A stretch of DNA of 51,736 nucleotides from a virus. Lineage: Duplodnaviria; Caudoviricetes. Made by a program: the position numbers and the translations under genes. Location: positions 1 to 51,736 of the IMG/VR virus record IMGVR_UViG_3300025864_000003, one strand, 5' to 3'. Of the stretch, positions 28,668 to 44,926 are shown in pieces (position 1 is the first letter of the stretch; each line of letters starts with the position of its first letter). Below the pieces are notes generated by a model. That model was not told the origin of the DNA and searched no databases. It saw only the letters and a list, made by a program, of their open reading frames with translations.

Positions 28668-28858
28668 TGGGATGCGACCATCCATATCGCAACGAACTCG
28701 CCGGTCAGGACATGTGGATTTGCCGCATCTGTGGGAACATAGGTCGCGATGAAGAGATTCTCTATACGGCCGTGCAGGCAAGAGAGGCTTCTCGTGACGA
28801 ACTAGAGACCGAGATAGAGAGACTTCGTAGCATCATTGATAAGTACAGAGGACTATGA
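28664..28858 (+). CDS. Small Zn-ribbon/coiled-coil protein
   Basis: CDH...CRICG; coupled to neighbouring genes. Confidence 0.6.
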   Translation: MMGCDHPYRNELAGQDMWICRICGNIGRDEEILYTAVQAREASRDELETEIERLRSIIDKYRGL

Positions 28859-28859
28859 C

Positions 28860-29384
28860 ATGACCATTTTCTTCACCTCAGACCTGCACCTCGACCACTG
28901 GGCCGAGTGGCTGCAAAAACAACGCCACGAATTTCACAGTGTCGGGGAAATGAACAGCGTCCTCTTCTCGAACATCCTTCGCACCGTAAACTCCCGGGAT
29001 GAACTGTACGTTCTTGGAGACTTCGCCTGGCGTCCAGATACATTCAAGGCATACGCGGCAGCACTGGAGGCGTTATGCACGGTGCACTGGGTGCAGGGCA
29101 ACCACGATCCGAAGGTGCGACACGACCCACTGGCGCTGGACTTCCGCTACGGAAAGAAGCACTGGTATGTCTGCCACTACCCGTGGCAGTCCTTCAGACC
29201 GAACACGGTGATGCTGCACGGGCACTGTCACGCGAGAGACATAGGTGTTTCGGAAGACACTCGTCAACGTATGAGATACGATGTCGGAGTAGATGCGGAG
29301 TGGGGAGGGAGAAAGTACTTTCCAGTGTCCATCGAACAGATCGAGGCACGCATTCACAACACACAGCTAAAGTACCCAGTATAA
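28860..29384 (+). CDS. Calcineurin-like metallophosphoesterase
   Basis: SDLHLDH, LGDF, GNHD, CHYP, LHGHCH, DVGVD motifs. Confidence 0.92.
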   Translation: MTIFFTSDLHLDHWAEWLQKQRHEFHSVGEMNSVLFSNILRTVNSRDELYVLGDFAWRPDTFKAYAAALEALCTVHWVQGNHDPKVRHDPLALDFRYGKKHWYVCHYPWQSFRPNTVMLHGHCHARDIGVSEDTRQRMRYDVGVDAEWGGRKYFPVSIEQIEARIHNTQLKYPV

Positions 29385-30571: not shown

Positions 30572-30651
30572 GGGGGCGGACTGGCTTCGACAGCGGATAA
30601 AGCCAAAGAGCAATCTGCTGGACACGCGTTCGATTCGCGTCGCCTCCACCA
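30572..30651 (+). ncRNA. Minimal tmRNA-like RNA (tRNA-like domain only, Ala identity)
   Basis: GGGGGCG/CGCCTCC-ACCA acceptor with G3:U70 and A73; stemless D-loop GACTGGCTTCGA; CAGCGGAT/ATCTGCTG stem; GAC linker; T-arm ACGCG-TTCGATT-CGCGT. Confidence 0.85.
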
Positions 30652-31302: not shown

Positions 31303-31754
31303 GCACAGCGTACCCCCCTTCTGACCACCCTCTTTGTCCACGTTATACTGTGGGAGGGTAAGGAGCCCGGAGAGGGTAGGAAAATAAAAAAATATATGAA
31401 AAAAGAGTCCTCCTTCTTTGTGCAGGAAGAAGCACCCCGATGGGGGTGGGTAACACGAGTACGTCGTGTGAAGGCAAGGACATATGGAAGTCAACTACAT
31501 TGCGCTGTGGATAAGCCCCTGAATAATTTACCCTGTGTATAGTGTACCCTTCTGTTCGCATCACCCGGCCTATTGTTGTTATTTATGTGATATAAAACAT
31601 AATAAACACAGAAACAAACAGAAATGCACAGGAATCAGGGTATCCCTGCCCCTCCTACCCCCCGTCCCCTCCCCTCCCCTACTCACTATCGCCTTGGCAT
31701 TACATGTTATGTTACTATATGTGCATGTATAATCATATAGAGTAGTAGGGGTGC

Positions 31755-32062
31755 GGCGCGTGCATCCATGCGTGCGTGCATACGCACACTATGTGCATGT
31801 ATGTGTGTGTGTATCATGCATGTGCATGCGTGTGCATGTGCATGCGTGTGTGTGTAGTGCGTGTAGTACGTGTGCTGTACTGCTGTTGTATGTGCTGTAG
31901 TATACGCTATGCTATGTGCTGTTGTATGTGCTATGCTATGCTGTATGCTATGTGCTAAGTTAGATGCTAAGTTATCTTCTCATCTATGGCATAGAATATG
32001 TCATATGCTATATGCTGTAGTACATGCTATATTACGTGCTATGCTATATGCTGTTATACGCA
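31755..32062. repeat. Low-complexity tract: alternating purine-pyrimidine (TG/CA) run followed by TATGC/TGCT-type short repeats
   Basis: Directly visible GTGCATGTGCATGCGTGTGTGT... and ...GCTATGCTATGCTGTATGCTATGTGCT... Confidence 0.9.
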
Positions 32063-32226
32063 ATCGTGCTAGGCTGCCTGCTTTACGCGCGGTACTGCGC
32101 GCCCATAGAGCCTCACGCGGTACGGCGTGCGAAGCCCTGCGTATGCAGTCCTTATGGACTATGCGCGCGCACAGTCCTTTTGGACTGCGAATTCTTTACC
32201 AAAGAACGGTAAAGGCTCCCAAACCC

Positions 32227-32283
32227 CTCTCTCACTCTTATTGACTCTTGAACGCAGTGAAAGAGTCAATAAGAGAGAGAGAG
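32227..32283. repeat. 23-bp-arm inverted repeat (1 mismatch, 11-nt spacer)
   Basis: CTCTCTCaCTCTTATTGACTCTT-gaacgcagtga-AAGAGTCAATAAGAGaGAGAGAG. Confidence 0.9.
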
Positions 32284-32295
32284 AAGGAGCCCGAA

Positions 32296-32721
32296 ATGTC
32301 CAAGTCAGCCTCAGCAGCCTCTCCAACAGTCGCAACGAAGCCCGTTCGCAAGGTCCACACCATCCGGCCCGTCAAGGCGAAGGCGCTGACGAGTGCGGTG
32401 GAAGGCGCAGCCGCATATGCAGCCTACCAGCACCAGCACAAGGCGACACCAGCGAAGGCTGATTGGAATAAGATCGTCCAGCAGATTGGCCTCAGCCTTG
32501 GCTACCTGCGTGTCCCGTATGCCTTCGGGCTCACGTTGCTCCCGGTGTGGACGGCTGCGTACAAGGCCGCTCAGAAGGGACACGTTCCTGCCAAGCCTGT
32601 CACCATCCCCAAGAAGGCTCCCAAGGCTCCCGCGAAGGCAAAGCCTTCCAGCGAGCCCACGTACACAAAGGCTCAGGTTGCTGAGGCCGTCGCCGCCGCA
32701 ATTGCGAGCCTGACTGCGTAA
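32296..32721 (+). CDS. Ala/Lys/Pro-rich basic protein, first gene of the putative early region
   Basis: SD AAGGAG, strongly biased codon usage, PKKAPKAPAKAK repeats. Confidence 0.8.
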   Translation: MSKSASAASPTVATKPVRKVHTIRPVKAKALTSAVEGAAAYAAYQHQHKATPAKADWNKIVQQIGLSLGYLRVPYAFGLTLLPVWTAAYKAAQKGHVPAKPVTIPKKAPKAPAKAKPSSEPTYTKAQVAEAVAAAIASLTA

Positions 32722-32764
32722 GCTCACCACACATACGGGGCTCACGCTCACATAGGTGAGCCCC

Positions 32765-32820
32765 CAGGTCCGTGCAGGGTGGTGCCTGCACGCCGATGAC
32801 GCCAGCCTAGGCGAAACCTG
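32765..32820 (+). ncRNA. Type III hammerhead ribozyme, variant core (HH1)
   Basis: CAGGT-C^ CGTGCAGG-gtggtg-CCTGCACG CCGATGA c GCC-agccta-GGC GAAA CCTG; all three stems pair; GUC site at 32768-32770. Confidence 0.8.
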
Positions 32821-33241
32821 AGCTAGCCTCCTTCATATAGGCATGAAGTGTAGCAAGGCGAAGACGAAGAGAACTACAATACGTTCCGAGCCATGGGTGC
32901 GACCGGGAACACGGTAACCCATGGGGTGCCTACCACCAATACAGGTGGAGTGCGTACCCGCTTTCAGCGGGGTCCACAGGCCAGACTCGGCAGGGCGAAG
33001 ACACATGTACCCAACATGCACGGGCATTTTACGTGTGTCTATGGCAAGCCCTGAAGCACTCCGAGCAGTACCCGTCTGTCTGCGCCTAAGGGTGAGGACA
33101 TGGGGAAGCCACGTGAGGAACGTGGGTGCAGGAAGAAAAGCATTTGGCGGAGGACGCGTATGAAGGTGAGGACATAGGATGGCAGCCTACAACGGCAGCA
33201 TAGCCGTATAAAGCACGCCTAATACTCACATAACATTACGA

Positions 33242-33318
33242 GTGACGGTAGCATAATTGGATAATGCCTTAGGATGTGGCCCTAAGCGATGTGGGTCCGA
33301 GCCCCACCCGTCACTCCA
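33242..33318 (+). tRNA. tRNA-His(GUG), non-canonical
   Basis: Acceptor GTGACGG/CCGTCAC, D-arm GCAT/ATGC, anticodon arm TTAGG-ATGTGGC-CCTAA, T-arm GTGGG-TCCGAGC-CCCAC, encoded CCA. Confidence 0.9.
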
Positions 33319-33381
33319 GTTCGTACATAGATGGTTGAGCCCAAAGGGCTCCTGATGATGGCCCGAAAGCCGAAACCGAAC
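33319..33381 (+). ncRNA. Type III hammerhead ribozyme (HH2) immediately 3' of tRNA-His
   Basis: GGT-T^ GAGCC-caaag-GGCTC CTGATGA t GGC-ccgaaa-GCC GAAA CC; stem III can extend via GTTCG/CGAAC. Confidence 0.8.
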
Positions 33382-33395
33382 ATGGAGGCGCGTAG

Positions 33396-33560
33396 ATGCG
33401 TGGCGATGGTCTGATAGCGTGTGAGATATGCGGGCAAGACATACTCGTAGTTTCCGCCATGTGGCACGAGTGTGCCTGTGCAGATAAGCAGGGTGTAACG
33501 ACACCCTTGTGCCAGGAATGTGACAAAGAGAACCCAACGGGCGATTGCCCGAATGACTAG
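33396..33560 (+). CDS. Small Cys-rich Zn-finger protein (54 aa)
   Basis: SD GGAGG; CEICG...LCQEC; read manually. Confidence 0.7.
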   Translation: MRGDGLIACEICGQDILVVSAMWHECACADKQGVTTPLCQECDKENPTGDCPND

Positions 33561-33570
33561 GAAGGATATC

Positions 33571-33744
33571 ATGACGCTTCACACACAAGAGGCTGCTATA
33601 GAATATCAATACGAATGTGCACATGCCTCGGATGAGTTCCTGGAGGAAGACGAGTCGGTTAGCACCGACGAGAGTGCGTTCACCTGCGTCATCTGTGGGT
33701 GTAATGAAGTGTTCGTGGACGGCAAGTTCGAGTGTGGGTGCTGA
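33571..33744 (+). CDS. Small acidic Zn-ribbon protein
   Basis: SD GGAAGG; CVICGC...ECGC. Confidence 0.6.
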   Translation: MTLHTQEAAIEYQYECAHASDEFLEEDESVSTDESAFTCVICGCNEVFVDGKFECGC

Positions 33745-33745
33745 C

Positions 33746-33901
33746 ATGGATGACCTGGACAAGATAGCATACGATGATCTGTGGGCGGAATTTGAGAAGC
33801 TGAAGGACTTCTGCTGGAAAGAGACATTTCGTGCGGATGATGCTGAGGCCAAGATAGAGCGCCTTGTGGCCGCAGAGCGGATTTGCAGGGGAAGGTGCTA
33901 A
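33746..33901 (+). CDS. Small coiled-coil protein
   Basis: MDDLDKIAYDDLWAEFEKLK...; coupled to the upstream stop. Confidence 0.55.
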   Translation: MDDLDKIAYDDLWAEFEKLKDFCWKETFRADDAEAKIERLVAAERICRGRC

Positions 33902-34228
33902 CATGACCGCACAACACAAGGCTGAGAAGGAGGCTCGACTGGCTGCCTACGCAGCAGCACTTGCAATCTGGAAGGCGTTGGATGCACACACCGAGCTGAG
34001 CGAGACGGTGCGACGTGCAAGGAAGAAGCTGACATGAGGACGCCACGGCGCAAGGTGACGTGCCCGATTTGTGGGGGGAGATGCTGACATGAGCGAGGAC
34101 GCATACAGGGGGTTGGACCCCGACATCAGCGAACAGTATGTGCTAACACAGTTCTATGCAGGCATGGAAAAGCTGGAAGTATACCTCACAAAGCAGGCCG
34201 CGTTTGATGAGTATGTGAAGGATGGTGA

Positions 34229-34916: not shown

Positions 34917-34930
34917 GGAGGTTGCGGACA

Positions 34931-36367
34931 ATGATCGAGTGTCCATCCATAGAGGTGCTGGAGTCCATGGGTTTTGATTTCAACACTACATTTGGCGTGG
35001 AGTTCGAGTTCTACTGTGTAGACGAAGACCGTGACGGTGTGGCTGACCATCTCGACAGCACCACCGGCATCAGCACACGTAGTGAACACTACAACCACAT
35101 TGACAATGACCACTACTGGAAGATTGTCTCGGACGCATCCCTGGATAGTTACGAAGATGACGGGGGATACGAGTGCGAGAATTGCGAAGTAAATCCTACG
35201 TGCGACGAGGACTGTGCGTACAACTGCACCCCAAGTTATGATTGCAGCGAGTGCGAGGTGAACACATACGACGGGCCAGAAGGCGAAGGTCCAGAGTGCG
35301 GGGAATGTGCAGAGCTAAACGACTTCCCCTCGTATGAGTGCGGGGATTGCGAGCAAGAGCGATACTGTGACGAGGACTGCTCATACCACTGTAGCCGCAG
35401 CAATTCGGGCAAGGGGGGCATGGAGCTAGTGTCCCCAATCCTGCAAGGCCACAAGGGGCTGAGTCAGGTACACGCCATGTTGGAGGCGCTGGAGGGCCTT
35501 GATTGCAGCGTAGATGAGAGCTGCGGGATGCACCTGCATCTTGACGGCGAGTCTCTAACGCATAACGACATGAAGAACCTTGCGTCCCTATATGTCAAGT
35601 ATGAGGCCACCATCGACAGCATCATGCCTGCTTCCCGTAGAAACAACAGCAATTGTAAATCCATGTGCAACGCAAGGTGGGGCGCCAGGGACTACGGCTG
35701 CGAGGCTCCACGCTTGAAGAAGATTGCGGCCAAGTTCGATGAAATGGAATCCGCCAAGGTTATGAGCGAGCTTCTGGGCATATGGAGAGATCGCTTCATC
35801 AAGCTGAACCTGGAGGCTATGCACGACCACGGAACTGTTGAGTTTCGTCAGCATGGCGGTACTCTGAGTTTCGAGAAGACCATGCACTGGGTTACCCTGT
35901 GCATGAACATGAGGCGCAGAGCTGTATGCGTATCGAAGGTGAGTCTGTCTGCCGAGAGCTACCCGTCTCTGGAGTGTATGATGGACGAGTTGGGGTCCAG
36001 CGAAGAGAGTAGGGCCTTCTGGCTGAAGAGGCGCGACCAATTCGCGGAAGAGGTATCCGCAGACCGTGCTCGTGTTGAGGTGGATGAGGCTAGGCGTGCC
36101 GTACATTACGAACAGCGGGAACACGACGAGCGTGTTGCTGCACAAGAGGCTTGGCGCTGGAACGCGGAGAGAAACGAACGAGGTGCGCAGGCAAGTTGGC
36201 TATTGTGGGACTATCCGATCCCTCTGCCGGATTCGGCATACGAATTACTCGCACGAGACAGAGCCTTCTGGTATTCCCGGGGTGCCGCACAGGCGGCAAG
36301 GGCGGAGAATGAGATACGGCCAGAGCTTCTGTTCGGCGACTATTATATGGCAATGCACGTAGCATAA
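34931..36367 (+). CDS. Amidoligase (COOH-NH2 ligase type 2 / Amidoligase_2) with Cys-rich insert
   Basis: TFGVEFEF, WKIVSDASL, MELVSPIL, SCGMHLH, KLNL, GTVEFRQHGGT. Confidence 0.9.
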   Translation: MIECPSIEVLESMGFDFNTTFGVEFEFYCVDEDRDGVADHLDSTTGISTRSEHYNHIDNDHYWKIVSDASLDSYEDDGGYECENCEVNPTCDEDCAYNCTPSYDCSECEVNTYDGPEGEGPECGECAELNDFPSYECGDCEQERYCDEDCSYHCSRSNSGKGGMELVSPILQGHKGLSQVHAMLEALEGLDCSVDESCGMHLHLDGESLTHNDMKNLASLYVKYEATIDSIMPASRRNNSNCKSMCNARWGARDYGCEAPRLKKIAAKFDEMESAKVMSELLGIWRDRFIKLNLEAMHDHGTVEFRQHGGTLSFEKTMHWVTLCMNMRRRAVCVSKVSLSAESYPSLECMMDELGSSEESRAFWLKRRDQFAEEVSADRARVEVDEARRAVHYEQREHDERVAAQEAWRWNAERNERGAQASWLLWDYPIPLPDSAYELLARDRAFWYSRGAAQAARAENEIRPELLFGDYYMAMHVA

Positions 36368-36378
36368 TGGGAGGCTAT

Positions 36379-37200
36379 ATGACGAAGGACTACAAGAGGT
36401 TGTGGAAGTGGGTTGACCCCGAGGCATACAGACAGAAGATGGAGGACAAATACGAACATCACCCGCGCCTTTACATAGCATATGGAAGCAACCTGAACAT
36501 ACCGCAGATGCAGGCACGTTGCTACACTGCGAAGCAAGTAAGGGTCGTGAATCTTCTCGACTATGAGCTGGTGTTCACAGACGTGCTTACAGTCGAGCCG
36601 TTACTAGGCAGCAAGGTGCCGTGTGGACTGTGGCGCGTGACACCGGAGGACATTGACGCCCTAGACACATACGAGGGCTATCCCCACCTTTACGACAAGG
36701 TATATGTCACCATAAACATTGATGGCGTGGACGAACTGGCGTTCCTGTACGTGTTGGACATCGAATACGAGCTGTCGGCACCATACAGCGGTTACCTTCG
36801 CACCTGCCTTGACGGGTACAGGCAGTGGGGCCTTGACGAGAATGTGCTTAGAATGGCCGAGGCGGCTGCCGTGGACGCCGAGAGGGATGTAGAGAAAACA
36901 CCCATGGAGTGCTCCTCCTGTAACGTAGTTCTACCACGTCCGCTGATGACCAAGACTCGCTTATTTGGATGGATGTGCCTGGACTGTCAGGAAGTCATGT
37001 TCTACGGCCAAGACGGGAATGTGGCATCATACGGACACAACACCATAGGGACACCGAGAACATCGCTGTTGTATGATGACCTGTCGCCTGATTGGGAGAC
37101 TTGCGACCCCAGCGAGCTGGACTGGAGTCCCGGAGGCGACTATGCATATGACGACATGGGGTCGAACAGACAAGCGGATTGTGGAGGAGGATGGAGCTGA
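36379..37200 (+). CDS. Gamma-glutamylcyclotransferase (AIG2/GGCT-like) with C-terminal Zn finger
   Basis: YIAYGSNLN..QM..RC, ALDTYEGYP.LY; CSSC...CLDC. Confidence 0.9.
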   Translation: MTKDYKRLWKWVDPEAYRQKMEDKYEHHPRLYIAYGSNLNIPQMQARCYTAKQVRVVNLLDYELVFTDVLTVEPLLGSKVPCGLWRVTPEDIDALDTYEGYPHLYDKVYVTINIDGVDELAFLYVLDIEYELSAPYSGYLRTCLDGYRQWGLDENVLRMAEAAAVDAERDVEKTPMECSSCNVVLPRPLMTKTRLFGWMCLDCQEVMFYGQDGNVASYGHNTIGTPRTSLLYDDLSPDWETCDPSELDWSPGGDYAYDDMGSNRQADCGGGWS

Positions 37201-44269: not shown

Positions 44270-44926
44270 TCATCCAATGTAATCCTTTCCCCCATTCTTC
44301 GCCCCCTTTGCGCCGTCGTTGCCCAGCGTTTTCTTGAACATGTTTCCACCAGCTACGTGGTACACGACGACGCCCTCTGGGTTCATGAAGGTGGGATGGG
44401 CGACGGCGGCACTGCCCTGCGCCTCAAGACTGTCCAGCACGCACTCCACCACCTCCAGATTGAAGGGACCCCTGTACAGCAGTGGCACGAGGTTCACACA
44501 CGGCGGCAGTACCTCCTGATATTTCTCTTGTGTTGGGTCGCCAGTGATGATGCGCTGAGGCTCGGTGCCATGCTCACACCACCGGATGACGTTGAACATG
44601 GAGAACTCCTTGTGTCCCAGGCCATAGTTCCTGTTGATGCCCAGTCCCCACCACTCACCGAAGTGGTGGCCACGTCCCAGCGTTTGCAGCTCTTCCTTGT
44701 GCTCGTAGGCCCACTTCGCGAAGCCCATGTTGTCGTTGCCCGGGGCGATCCAGCGTTTTCTACTGCCGACGAGGAACTCCCCGTCGTCCCCGTTGTATAT
44801 CTGTGCGTTCGTGCCGTCTATCTTCTCGGTGATAATCATGTCCCGAGACAATCTCGGAATCTTGCCAAAGGAAACAAACGGCGTCTCCACTGACAACGCG
44901 CCGTGTTCTGCAAAGTTCACCATCAC
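44270..44926 (-). CDS. ATP-dependent RNA ligase (Rnl2-like adenylyltransferase domain)
   Basis: F.KIPRL, motif I TEKIDGTN, GSR.R.I...DN.GFA, FGEWWG.GI, VPLLY.G, EGVV. Confidence 0.85.
   Translation of the reverse strand: MMVNFAEHGALSVETPFVSFGKIPRLSRDMIITEKIDGTNAQIYNGDDGEFLVGSRKRWIAPGNDNMGFAKWAYEHKEELQTLGRGHHFGEWWGLGINRNYGLGHKEFSMFNVIRWCEHGTEPQRIITGDPTQEKYQEVLPPCVNLVPLLYRGPFNLEVVECVLDSLEAQGSAAVAHPTFMNPEGVVVYHVAGGNMFKKTLGNDGAKGAKNGGKDYIG

Follow-up and report, generated by a model that had tools for sequence, protein, structure and literature searches.

The window analysed here comprises 51,736 nt (51.7 kb) and represents the complete genome of a phage from peat soil. On its plus strand, two hammerhead motifs bracket a structured non-coding RNA (ncRNA) and a tRNA-His gene, and this arrangement suggests that a defined RNA is cut from a longer transcript by phage ribozymes. 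According to the reading we consider probable, the two ribozymes delimit an RNA cassette in a plus-strand polycistronic transcript, the pair is conserved for ncRNA biogenesis and the tRNA joined later as a passenger. When we scanned the whole window on both strands with our own descriptor, we found exactly two type III hammerhead motifs (HH1, HH2), both on the plus strand, and neither type I nor type II hammerheads in the window. The initial annotation had assigned two same-strand type III hammerheads with cut sites after 32770 and 33336 to this locus, and both the descriptor scan and the anatomy of the motifs (Table 1) bore this out. The stretch between the predicted cuts (32771-33336) measures 566 nt, which agrees with the approximate length given initially, and the tRNA-His that had been noticed in the cassette was recognized by ARAGORN and by the Rfam tRNA model.

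Table 1. Coordinates of the cassette, its ribozyme elements and the adjacent genes (window numbering unless stated otherwise)
Feature	Position	Strand	Evidence or remark
Upstream gene, 141-aa Ala/Lys/Pro-rich protein	32296-32721	+	ORF list
HH1, type III hammerhead, U4C core variant	32765-32820	+	descriptor, fold, Rfam best family, covariation
HH1 stem III	32765-32769/32816-32820	+	5 bp
HH1 C17	32770	+	predicted cut after 32770, site GUC^
HH1 stem I	32771-32778/32785-32792	+	8 bp; loop I GUGGUG
HH1 core CCGAUGA	32793-32799	+	C at 32794 (position U4)
HH1 extra C	32800	+	
HH1 stem II	32801-32803/32810-32812	+	3 bp; loop II AGCCUA
HH1 GAAA	32813-32816	+	
Conserved structured ncRNA, ~410 nt	32821-33229	+	homology to L022, covariation
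ncRNA long-range helix closing multi-branch core	32879-32884/33156-33161	+	
ncRNA hairpins include	32928-32953, 32999-33040, 33107-33127	+	
ncRNA 3' domain	33166-33229	+	
tRNA-His(GUG), encoded CCA	33242-33318	+	ARAGORN; Rfam tRNA 49.3 bits (cut-off 29)
tRNA 3' trailer, 18 nt	33319-33336	+	ends at predicted HH2 cut
HH2, type III hammerhead, consensus core	33332-33378	+	descriptor, null, fold, Rfam best family
HH2 stem III	33332-33335/33375-33378	+	4 bp
HH2 U17	33336	+	predicted cut after 33336, site GUU^
HH2 stem I	33337-33342/33346-33351	+	6 bp
HH2 core CUGAUGA	33352-33358	+	
HH2 extra U	33359	+	between A9 and G10.1
HH2 stem II	33360-33362/33369-33371	+	3 bp
HH2 GAAA	33372-33375	+	
GGAGG ribosome-binding site	33384-33388	+	begins 6 nt after HH2
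54-aa Cys-rich ORF	33396-33560	+	ORF list
HH2', positional counterpart of HH2 in L022	L022:1178-1227		hammerhead-like

Architecture of the two hammerhead motifs

In both hammerheads, A9 and G10.1 are separated by one extra nucleotide, stem II has 3 bp including G10.1-C11.1, and loop II is 6 nt long; for both of them the minimum-free-energy fold is the three-way junction. The extra nucleotide following A9 can pair with G12 (RNAalifold draws a 4-bp stem II) and such pairing would compete with the active core. In HH2, the invariant core is complete (CUGAUGA, GAAA, U17, and A15.1-U16.1 formed by U33335-A33375), and the core-adjacent pairs (G-C at 1.1-2.1, G10.1-C11.1, A15.1-U16.1) leave no mispair beside the core. 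In HH1, C replaces U4, and all remaining core positions match the descriptor. U4C is a natural hammerhead variant with considerably lower in vitro activity (Perreault et al. 2011, PMC3088659). HH1 of the window may therefore be slow.

Simulations with 873 first-order Markov sequences of window length gave a chance rate of 0.0011 per genome for the strict motif and of 0.050 per genome when up to one core mismatch was allowed, and these rates are optimistic because the descriptor and its thresholds were set after the candidates had been seen. None of the 873 random sequences carried two motifs. A search with the Infernal hammerhead models, which the initial annotation had proposed as a check, returned a hammerhead as best Rfam family for each element, but with scores below the gathering cut-offs. 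In scans of ~75 nt, and only there, the hammerhead family was the top Rfam match: Hammerhead_II (RF02276) for HH1 (20.1 bits, gathering cut-off 37) and Hammerhead_3 (RF00008) for HH2 (13.1 bits, cut-off 48.5). The HH2 alignment was full-length, with the extra U placed as an insertion. Across the window, none of the Rfam hammerhead models matched at gathering score and RF00008 yielded nothing at E<=10 on the genome scale. The Rfam gathering cut-off is a curation threshold and not a biochemical criterion.

For comparison, we used the metagenome relative L022, in which the layout is HH-ncRNA-HH, and variant contigs from peat metagenomes. The L022 homologue of HH1 has a canonical core, and its loops I and II are identical to those of the window. 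Three of the eight stem I pairs and one stem II pair have changed on both sides between the two sequences, and no pair is broken. Among the variant contigs, the pairs 32774/32789 and 32802/32811 show compensatory changes, 32765 C>T converts an HH1 pair to U-G, and in two of them 32794 C>T restores the consensus U4; the loops are again identical. Since relatives carry U4 and U4C is a known natural variant, we assigned HH1 to a hammerhead lineage, as a variant in the core. The initial annotation had regarded conservation of the stems in homologous loci as critical, and for HH1 the stems covary in the relatives.

The contigs that cover HH2 are identical to the window, apart from one variant contig (33238-33475) with 5 differences, and the L022 counterpart of HH2 is not alignable by sequence. 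This counterpart (HH2') sits precisely where the ncRNA ends on its 3' side, just before a ribosome-binding site. It deviates twice from the core (U4C and a G inserted in GAAA) and may be inactive, judging from these changes. The null rate for an element like HH2' is 0.0004 per kb per strand.

The subthreshold Rfam scores, the U4C change in HH1, the two deviations in HH2' and the short stems II and III would also fit chance look-alikes or decayed relics, so that only the ncRNA would be conserved and made by ordinary transcription and RNase processing. We consider this very unlikely, since the null rates are low and the stems covary around invariant core nucleotides that are conserved. Moreover, relatives carry the canonical HH1 core, and in the window as in L022, the cassette retains a perfect core in at least one of its hammerheads.

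The conserved cargo and its distribution among relatives

The RNA between HH1 and the tRNA is homologous to L022:722-~1140 (64% identity). In 8 of the 10 alignment gaps the length is not a multiple of 3, and tblastx (window vs L022) detected no conserved reading frame; on these grounds we rejected a coding role of the cargo. RNAalifold predicted 96 pairs for the ncRNA, and both sides have changed in 26 of them. For the whole A2 alignment (window/L022, HH1 included) the corresponding numbers are 113 and 30. Six slid controls gave 1-4 double-changed pairs, and the observed values were reached in 0 of 500 shuffles. In a third sequence, a variant contig that had not entered the prediction, pairing is retained at all 14 of the paired-position differences that could be assessed, and 10 of them form 5 compensatory pairs; three compensatory pairs of this contig fall in the hairpin 32933-32948. 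The structure is supported by only three independent sequences in total. Together with the gap lengths and the lack of a conserved frame, these covarying pairs agree with the initial description of the interior as mostly non-coding and structured.

No significant covariance-model match to an Rfam family was obtained for the cargo. Weak matches were c-di-GMP-II-GAG for the window (15.4 bits, E=9.2) and RAGATH-28 for L022 (16.6 bits, E=4.7), and we rejected both identities because the matched positions do not correspond and either match is confined to one homologue. Short repeats near 31420-31484, considered as a partial second copy of the ncRNA, were not significant by blastn. The cargo is a candidate for a new family of structured phage RNA.

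The tRNA folds into a cloverleaf with a GUG anticodon, A at position -1 (33241), a G1-C72 pair and U73 as discriminator (33315). The usual identity element for bacterial HisRS is G-1 opposite C73, and with A at -1 and U as discriminator the phage tRNA does not have this element. The last 5 nt of its trailer are the 5' strand of HH2 stem III plus U17. L022 does not contain a tRNA. Because HH-ncRNA-HH is present there without it, the tRNA appears to be a lineage-specific passenger and, as far as the two cassettes tell, the conserved cargo is the ~410-nt ncRNA and not the tRNA. Release of a precursor of ncRNA and tRNA, as suggested initially, is the reading we favour, with the ncRNA as the conserved part.

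The tRNA is also central to an unlikely alternative, in which tRNA maturation is the primary purpose, HH2 is the hammerhead counterpart of the theta (HDV-like) ribozymes of gut phages (Kienbeck et al. 2024, PMC10879173), and HH1 with the intervening RNA forms a long 5' leader. In both systems a phage tRNA gene is followed directly by a small self-cleaving ribozyme, so that the tRNA 3' side could be freed without host endonucleases, and 3'-trailer processing has been proposed for the theta ribozymes (PMC10879173). An RNA-ligase-family protein is also encoded by the phage, and this enzyme type was reported to be enriched in theta-ribozyme phages (PMC10879173), but the DRB0094 model is matched very weakly (17.9 bits vs cut-off 151). 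The 'leader' itself is under strong structural selection, and L022 keeps HH1, the ncRNA and the 3' hammerhead-like element in position, yet without a tRNA. Theta ribozymes have a nested double-pseudoknot HDV fold and cut at their own 5' end, beside the tRNA, whereas 18 nt remain between the encoded CCA and the predicted HH2 cut; the theta-ribozyme phages come from the mammalian gut rather than from peat, and their ribozymes mostly accompany suppressor tRNAs without CCA instead of a tRNA-His with encoded CCA. The class differs too: HH2 has a hammerhead core, and no HDV-family Rfam match was found at E<=10 in 32500-33600.

The layout proposed initially for relatives was found in part: L022 has HH-ncRNA-HH but no tRNA, and the cassette is absent from the other relatives. 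When viral contigs were searched, the terminase was the sole query that yielded relatives (6 loci). No match in these contigs was obtained with the upstream protein, the exact HH2 25-mer, the amidoligase, a degenerate HH1 pattern, two ncRNA block patterns or a two-protein alignment. The other relatives of the phage had no DNA similarity to 32250-33900 (best E 0.057), no tRNA in 10 loci and no Rfam hammerhead in 149,138 nt, and the descriptor gave one weak match in 159,546 nt. The closest relative (L020) ends before the cassette region. Two HH1-pattern matches in genome contigs were taken as chance, since both are without a complementary stem II, and no match was obtained by blastn among 50,697 phage records.

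Upstream of the cassette, the stop codon of the 141-aa gene is located 45 nt before HH1. This gene is the only neighbour common to the window and L022, and the two proteins share 57% identity by tblastn and 64% in the alignment. Neither this protein nor the 54-aa Cys-rich ORF downstream matched Pfam or PHROG entries, and the Atlas gave no lead for the neighbouring proteins. In L022, an unrelated ORF replaces the 54-aa ORF, and the downstream genes differ. It is extremely improbable that the cassette is a mobile element, moving via an RNA intermediate (retrozyme-like) or as a DNA module. The difference in the downstream genes fits such mobility, and so do minor contigs of one sample in which the similarity begins exactly at 32765/32766, the first HH1 nucleotides. 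However, the phage lacks a reverse transcriptase, the cassette is without flanking repeats, neither the genome nor the relatives contain a second copy, and in L022 the upstream gene is conserved together with the cassette.

Proposed processing of the transcript

On the plus strand, no terminator-like site was found in 32188-34000, and thus transcription could plausibly continue from the upstream gene into the ORFs that follow the cassette. In the ribozyme-delimited cassette favoured here, HH1 would cut this transcript 49 nt past the upstream stop codon (after 32770), and HH2 would cut it 18 nt past the tRNA CCA and 59 nt ahead of the next start codon (after 33336). Cleavage in vivo would set free an RNA of 566 nt that starts with a 5'-OH, ends in a 2',3'-cyclic phosphate and consists of the HH1 body, the structured ncRNA, the tRNA-His and a short trailer. 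Host RNase P might then cut between the ncRNA (about 32771-33241) and the tRNA, the trailer of which might be trimmed by exonucleases. The flanking mRNAs would become separate molecules, and the downstream mRNA would start with a 5'-OH and a folded HH2 leader. The conserved purpose of the ribozyme pair would be to provide the ncRNA with ends that are independent of promoter and terminator, and the tRNA would have come to use HH2 as 3'-processing site.

The initial annotation had also considered circularisation of the excised RNA, for which our data give no support. Two same-strand hammerheads would leave ligatable ends, and the 566-nt RNA could be joined, as in viroids or retrozymes, by host RtcB or by hammerhead-catalysed ligation. 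The 3' tail (GGU followed by U17) could form three pairs with the 3' strand of HH1, and the phage has an RNA-ligase-family gene (44273-44926) and a metallophosphoesterase (28836-29384). However, RtcB is not encoded by the phage, and there is no reverse transcriptase. RNA ligases of the family found here join 3'-OH to 5'-phosphate, which speaks against this reading. The hybrid stem III between the HH2 site and the HH1 body was rejected as support for a circle, since it amounts to only 3 bp in the window and L022 does not preserve it (A faces C at 16.2).

As in viroids, satellite RNAs and retrozymes (PMC6765202), two hammerhead cut sites enclose an ORF-less RNA that is a few hundred nucleotides long. 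In contrast to the retrozymes described there, the cassette is embedded in an operon of a dsDNA phage and is without LTR-like hammerhead repeats, PBS/PPT or target-site duplications; HH1 and HH2 are not direct-repeat copies of each other. Circular or spliced products of clustered prophage hammerheads were sought by Perreault et al. (PMC3088659) but not detected. Taken together, these data make circularisation improbable.

An extended version of the cassette model, which we regard as rather doubtful, would make the cargo a new class of large structured phage RNA, both ends of which are made by ribozymes rather than by promoter and terminator. It might act with the conserved basic 141-aa protein as RNP or as decoy against a host RNA-targeting system, and its release might be timed by a fast and a slow hammerhead (each of the two known cassettes has one canonical and one core-variant element).

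Relation to known ribozymes and phage RNAs

Clustered prophage hammerheads flank genes and cleave during transcription (Perreault et al. 2011, PMC3088659). That report describes several features that are shared by the present locus: several hammerheads close together on one strand in one phage transcript, core variants in phage intergenic regions, the loop I pseudoknot motif and a proposed role in cutting long transcripts into defined units. In PMC3088659, though, the hammerheads flank protein-coding genes, the identity of which varies, whereas here they flank a conserved, covarying ncRNA and a tRNA; both ribozymes of the window also differ in being type III and in carrying an additional nucleotide behind A9. 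The supplementary alignments of PMC3088659 may already include a hammerhead of this sub-type.

HH1 also resembles the type II pseudoknot hammerheads (RF02276). The GUGGU of its loop I and its AGCC motif fall on the sequences that form the pseudoknot in the type II consensus (Rfam alignment; PMC3088659), and the alignment extends over stem I, loop I, the core and the AGCC motif. In contrast to type II, stem II of HH1 is closed by the AGCC loop and stem III is open, which corresponds to type III, and its RF02276 score is below the gathering cut-off.

GOLLD and ROOL are large ornate phage-associated ncRNAs that are often found near tRNAs in prophages. The present cargo is likewise a multi-helix ncRNA of several hundred nucleotides beside a tRNA gene in a phage genome, but it is smaller and matches neither family in Rfam at E<=10. 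We know of no description of hammerhead-defined ends for GOLLD or ROOL.

In the openly accessible literature (main texts), we found no report of a phage hammerhead that is associated with a tRNA or flanks an ncRNA. The role of hammerheads in bacteria and phages has been an open question since they were found there in large numbers. Here, the unit to be cut out is a conserved covarying ncRNA, to which a tRNA was added in one lineage, and not a gene. This offers a concrete and testable function for hammerheads, the ribozyme-defined biogenesis of a stable RNA. Ribozyme-assisted tRNA 3' processing, which has so far been described for the theta ribozymes of gut phages alone (PMC10879173), may extend to hammerheads in a soil phage. 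The natural U4/C4 polymorphism of HH1 within one population provides a ready-made comparison of ribozyme activity.

Two hammerhead motifs and their conservation

We searched both strands of the window with our own type III descriptor, which demanded the core CUGANGA (A9 could be followed by one additional nucleotide), hairpins for stems I and II, GAAA downstream of stem II with A15.1 pairing to U16.1, and H17. Exactly two matches were obtained, the 5' motif HH1 and the 3' motif HH2, at the coordinates of the initial annotation. Neither a type I nor a type II arrangement turned up when the window was searched for them. HH1 and HH2 share an unusual build, in which one extra nucleotide separates A9 from G10.1, the 3-bp stem II starts with G10.1-C11.1 and loop II comprises 6 nt. 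For either motif the minimum-free-energy structure is a three-way junction. Among 873 random genomes drawn from a Markov-1 model, we counted 0.0011 strict motifs per genome and 0.050 motifs with at most one mismatch; these rates are somewhat flattering because the descriptor was written after the candidates had been seen, but the margin is still large. Two motifs were present in none of these genomes (0/873). Thus, descriptor, fold and random null confirm the two same-strand type III hammerhead motifs of the initial annotation.

Coordinates of the features in the window and in its relatives
Feature	Positions	Strand	Properties
HH1	32765-32820	+	core CCGAUGA (U4C); stems 8/3/5 bp; predicted cut after 32770
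HH2	33332-33378	+	consensus core; stems 6/3/4 bp; predicted cut after 33336
Conserved ncRNA (cargo)	32821-33229		~410 nt
tRNA-His(GUG)	33242-33318		Rfam tRNA model 49.3 bits
HH1 homologue, L022	666-721		canonical CUGAUGA; same extra C
Hammerhead-like element, L022	1178-1227		directly 3' of its ncRNA; stems 6/4/4 bp; core CCGAUGA; G inserted in GAAA
RNA-ligase-family nucleotidyltransferase	44273-44926	-	218 aa, stand-alone; PF09414 51.8 bits; PHROG 548 'RNA ligase'
Calcineurin-like metallophosphoesterase	28836-29384	+	
Degenerate repeats	31700-32075		~375 nt, non-coding; 12-nt period (10 in-register copies, 31877-32073); GTGCATG-type (31709-31853)
Terminator-like hairpin	32172-32187		
Inverted repeat	32227-32283		23 nt, 96% complementary, 11-nt spacing
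Amidoligase-like (481 aa), then directly gamma-glutamyl cyclotransferase-like protein (277 aa)	34922-37200	+	1.5 kb downstream of HH2
Mini-tmRNA	30572-30651	+	80 nt; Rfam tmRNA 68.2 bits
Mini-tmRNA, L020	272-351	-	64.7 bits

Screening with Infernal, which had been proposed as a check, gave a divided result. No Rfam hammerhead model matched at gathering score in the window or at E<=10 in 32500-33600, and RF00008 had no match at E<=10 over the whole genome. A hammerhead was the best of 4,227 Rfam families only when about 75 nt were scanned alone. Under these conditions HH2 was assigned to Hammerhead_3 (13.1 bits, E=1.6), in a full-length alignment that treats its extra U as inserted, and HH1 to Hammerhead_II (20.1 bits, E=0.022), where loop I GUGGU and loop II AGCC fall on the two sequences that form the pseudoknot in the type II consensus.

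A single metagenome scan with the 141-aa protein encoded directly upstream of HH1 retrieved one relative, L022 (1,576 nt), the sole one so obtained. Here, the homologue of the 141-aa protein is 57-64% identical and the HH1 homologue has the same loops as the window (GUGGUG and AGCCUA). Both partners differ between the two sequences in three of the eight stem I pairs and in one pair of stem II, and no pair is broken. When contigs of four peat metagenome runs (DNA only) were aligned to the cassette region, variant strains were found; a contig spanning 32645-33029 shows 34 differences from the window, of which 30 were listed. In this variant contig 32794 C>T restores U4 in HH1, 32774 G>A plus 32789 C>T convert a stem I G-C pair to A-U, 32802 C>G plus 32811 G>C convert a stem II C-G pair to G-C, and 32765 C>T turns a stem III C-G pair into U-G. 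The 32794 C>T exchange recurs in a second contig from another run. GUGGU and AGCC are invariant in all three sequences, which is consistent with a 3-bp tertiary contact between the loops. Thus, the L022 homologue and the peat variants identify HH1 as a member of a conserved hammerhead lineage, of which the window carries the U4C allele, and its stems covary in both homologous loci. A natural U4C variant is described in PMC3088659 as considerably less active in vitro while still supporting viroid infectivity. For HH2, one covering peat contig was identical to the window and the other had 5 differences.

Two minor contigs of the peat run X2 match the window from 32765/32766, the first HH1 nucleotides, onwards and are unlike it for 95-142 nt further upstream, so that this homology block starts precisely with the 5' end of HH1. 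At L022:640-671 the 9-nt unit CCCACAGGU is repeated three times in tandem and the array ends within the 5' strand of stem III of the HH1 homologue, which provides three alternative stem III and cut-site registers.

The non-coding RNA and the cassette layout

The cargo aligns with L022:722-~1140 at 64% identity. A coding reading of this stretch was rejected since 8 of the 10 alignment gaps are not multiples of three and tblastx returned short fragments only, equally in all six frames. From the window and L022, RNAalifold predicted 113 pairs (17 within HH1). In 30 of these, 26 belonging to the cargo, both nucleotides differ and the pairing is preserved. The observed values were reached by 0/500 shuffles, and 1-4 pairs of this kind were left when the 3' partners were shifted by 1-3 columns. 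Because this structure was derived from the same two sequences, we tested it on the variant contig, a third sequence outside the prediction with 24 listed differences in 32765-32996. Ten of these form 5 compensatory pairs (three in hairpin 32933-32948), 4 are one-sided and keep a G-U or G-C pair, 8 fall on unpaired positions and 2 have partners beyond the contig end; all 14 assessable differences leave their pairs intact. Taken together, gap lengths, tblastx, RNAalifold and variant-contig pairing bear out the initial description of the stretch between the hammerheads as mostly non-coding and structured. No Rfam family matches the cargo, and the weak matches obtained differ between window and L022.

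ARAGORN called one tRNA in the window, tRNA-His. It carries A at -1 (33241) and U at the discriminator position, and the usual bacterial tRNA-His has a G-1/C73 pair; its charging by host HisRS may be unusual. A search for a tRNA in L022 found none. Downstream of the hammerhead-like element of L022 lie a ribosome-binding site and an ORF that is not related to the one in the window. In random sequence, motifs of the grade of this element were encountered 3 times in 7.5 Mb, or 0.0004 per kb per strand, at thresholds set post hoc. Since L022 has the HH1 homologue, the ncRNA and the 3' element, the conserved layout is gene - HH - ncRNA - HH - gene, and the arrangement expected in relatives is present there except for the tRNA. 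Each of the two cassettes combines one perfect and one variant core. Judged from these two sequences, tRNA-His is apparently either an insertion between ncRNA and HH2 or was lost in L022, and the emphasis should be on the conserved ncRNA rather than on the tRNA. Six related phage loci found via terminase showed no similarity to the cassette region, no tRNA, no Rfam hammerhead and no convincing match to the type III descriptor; the closest of them (L020) ends before the cassette region.

Predicted self-excision and possible fate of the released RNA

Self-excision by the hammerhead pair is plausible and now has comparative backing. A search of the + strand for terminator-like sites found none in 32188-34000. 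A single self-cutting transcript is the most economical reading. This transcript would cut itself twice, at HH1 and HH2. The upstream mRNA would end 49 nt past its stop codon with a cyclic phosphate, and the released 566-nt RNA would contain the body of HH1, the ncRNA, the tRNA and a trailer of 18 nt. Cleavage by RNase P would part ncRNA and tRNA, with exonucleases shortening the trailer as far as the encoded CCA. Downstream, the mRNA would start with a folded 5'-OH leader positioned 6 nt ahead of its GGAGG.

It had also been suggested that the excised RNA may be joined into a circle, but this idea is unsupported: the phage has neither RtcB nor a reverse transcriptase, HH1 and HH2 are not repeats of each other, and the hybrid stem III at a circle junction would comprise 3 bp in the window and is not kept in L022. 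The RNA-ligase-family protein of the phage is encoded in the replication module on the opposite strand to the cassette, adjoining RusA and DnaB, and scores only 17.9 bits with the DRB0094 model. Ligases of its family need 3'-OH and 5'-phosphate ends. Together with the metallophosphoesterase, it may constitute an RNA or DNA end-repair set. For clustered prophage hammerheads, Perreault et al. (PMC3088659) report that circular or spliced products were not detected.

Clustered hammerheads flanking genes in prophages are established (PMC3088659). For HDV-like theta ribozymes neighbouring phage tRNAs, a role in processing the 3' trailers of tRNAs has been proposed (PMC10879173). Our cassette differs from the former in flanking an RNA that is conserved, structured and outside any known family instead of genes, and from the latter in having a hammerhead in the tRNA-trailer position. 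These two features are new here, and in the freely accessible main texts searched we found no report of a hammerhead-flanked ncRNA or a tRNA-trailer hammerhead. The sub-type of HH1 and HH2 may already be listed in the supplement of PMC3088659 (Dataset S1, Figures S6-S8).

Genome setting

The virus record is complete (51,736 bp) and has direct terminal repeats. Structural genes (terminase large subunit, major head protein, a 2,610-aa ORF) occupy the - strand, and the cassette lies inside a + strand block of mostly small ORFs (~28 to 42 kb), preceded upstream by ~950 nt of non-coding sequence in which repeats of 12-nt periodicity abound. DNA of the cassette region is present in peat and soil metagenome runs, and no RNA run was among those listed for it. 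The degenerate repeat stretch upstream of the cassette is a possible origin or regulatory array. The inverted repeat immediately 5' of the 141-aa gene, with the terminator-like hairpin just before it, could function as an operator or form a hairpin in the 5'-UTR. Neither the amidoligase-like nor the gamma-glutamyl cyclotransferase-like protein was found in related phages by pattern scan.

Directly after a TGTGGGTGTATAAT promoter-like box, the genome carries a 'mini-tmRNA', for which ARAGORN made no call. Of a tmRNA it comprises only the tRNA-like domain, with the 5' acceptor strand, the T-arm and an encoded CCA, and 12 nt take the place of the ~306-nt mRNA and pseudoknot part. The same element is present in L020, with paired changes in the stem adjoining the deletion.
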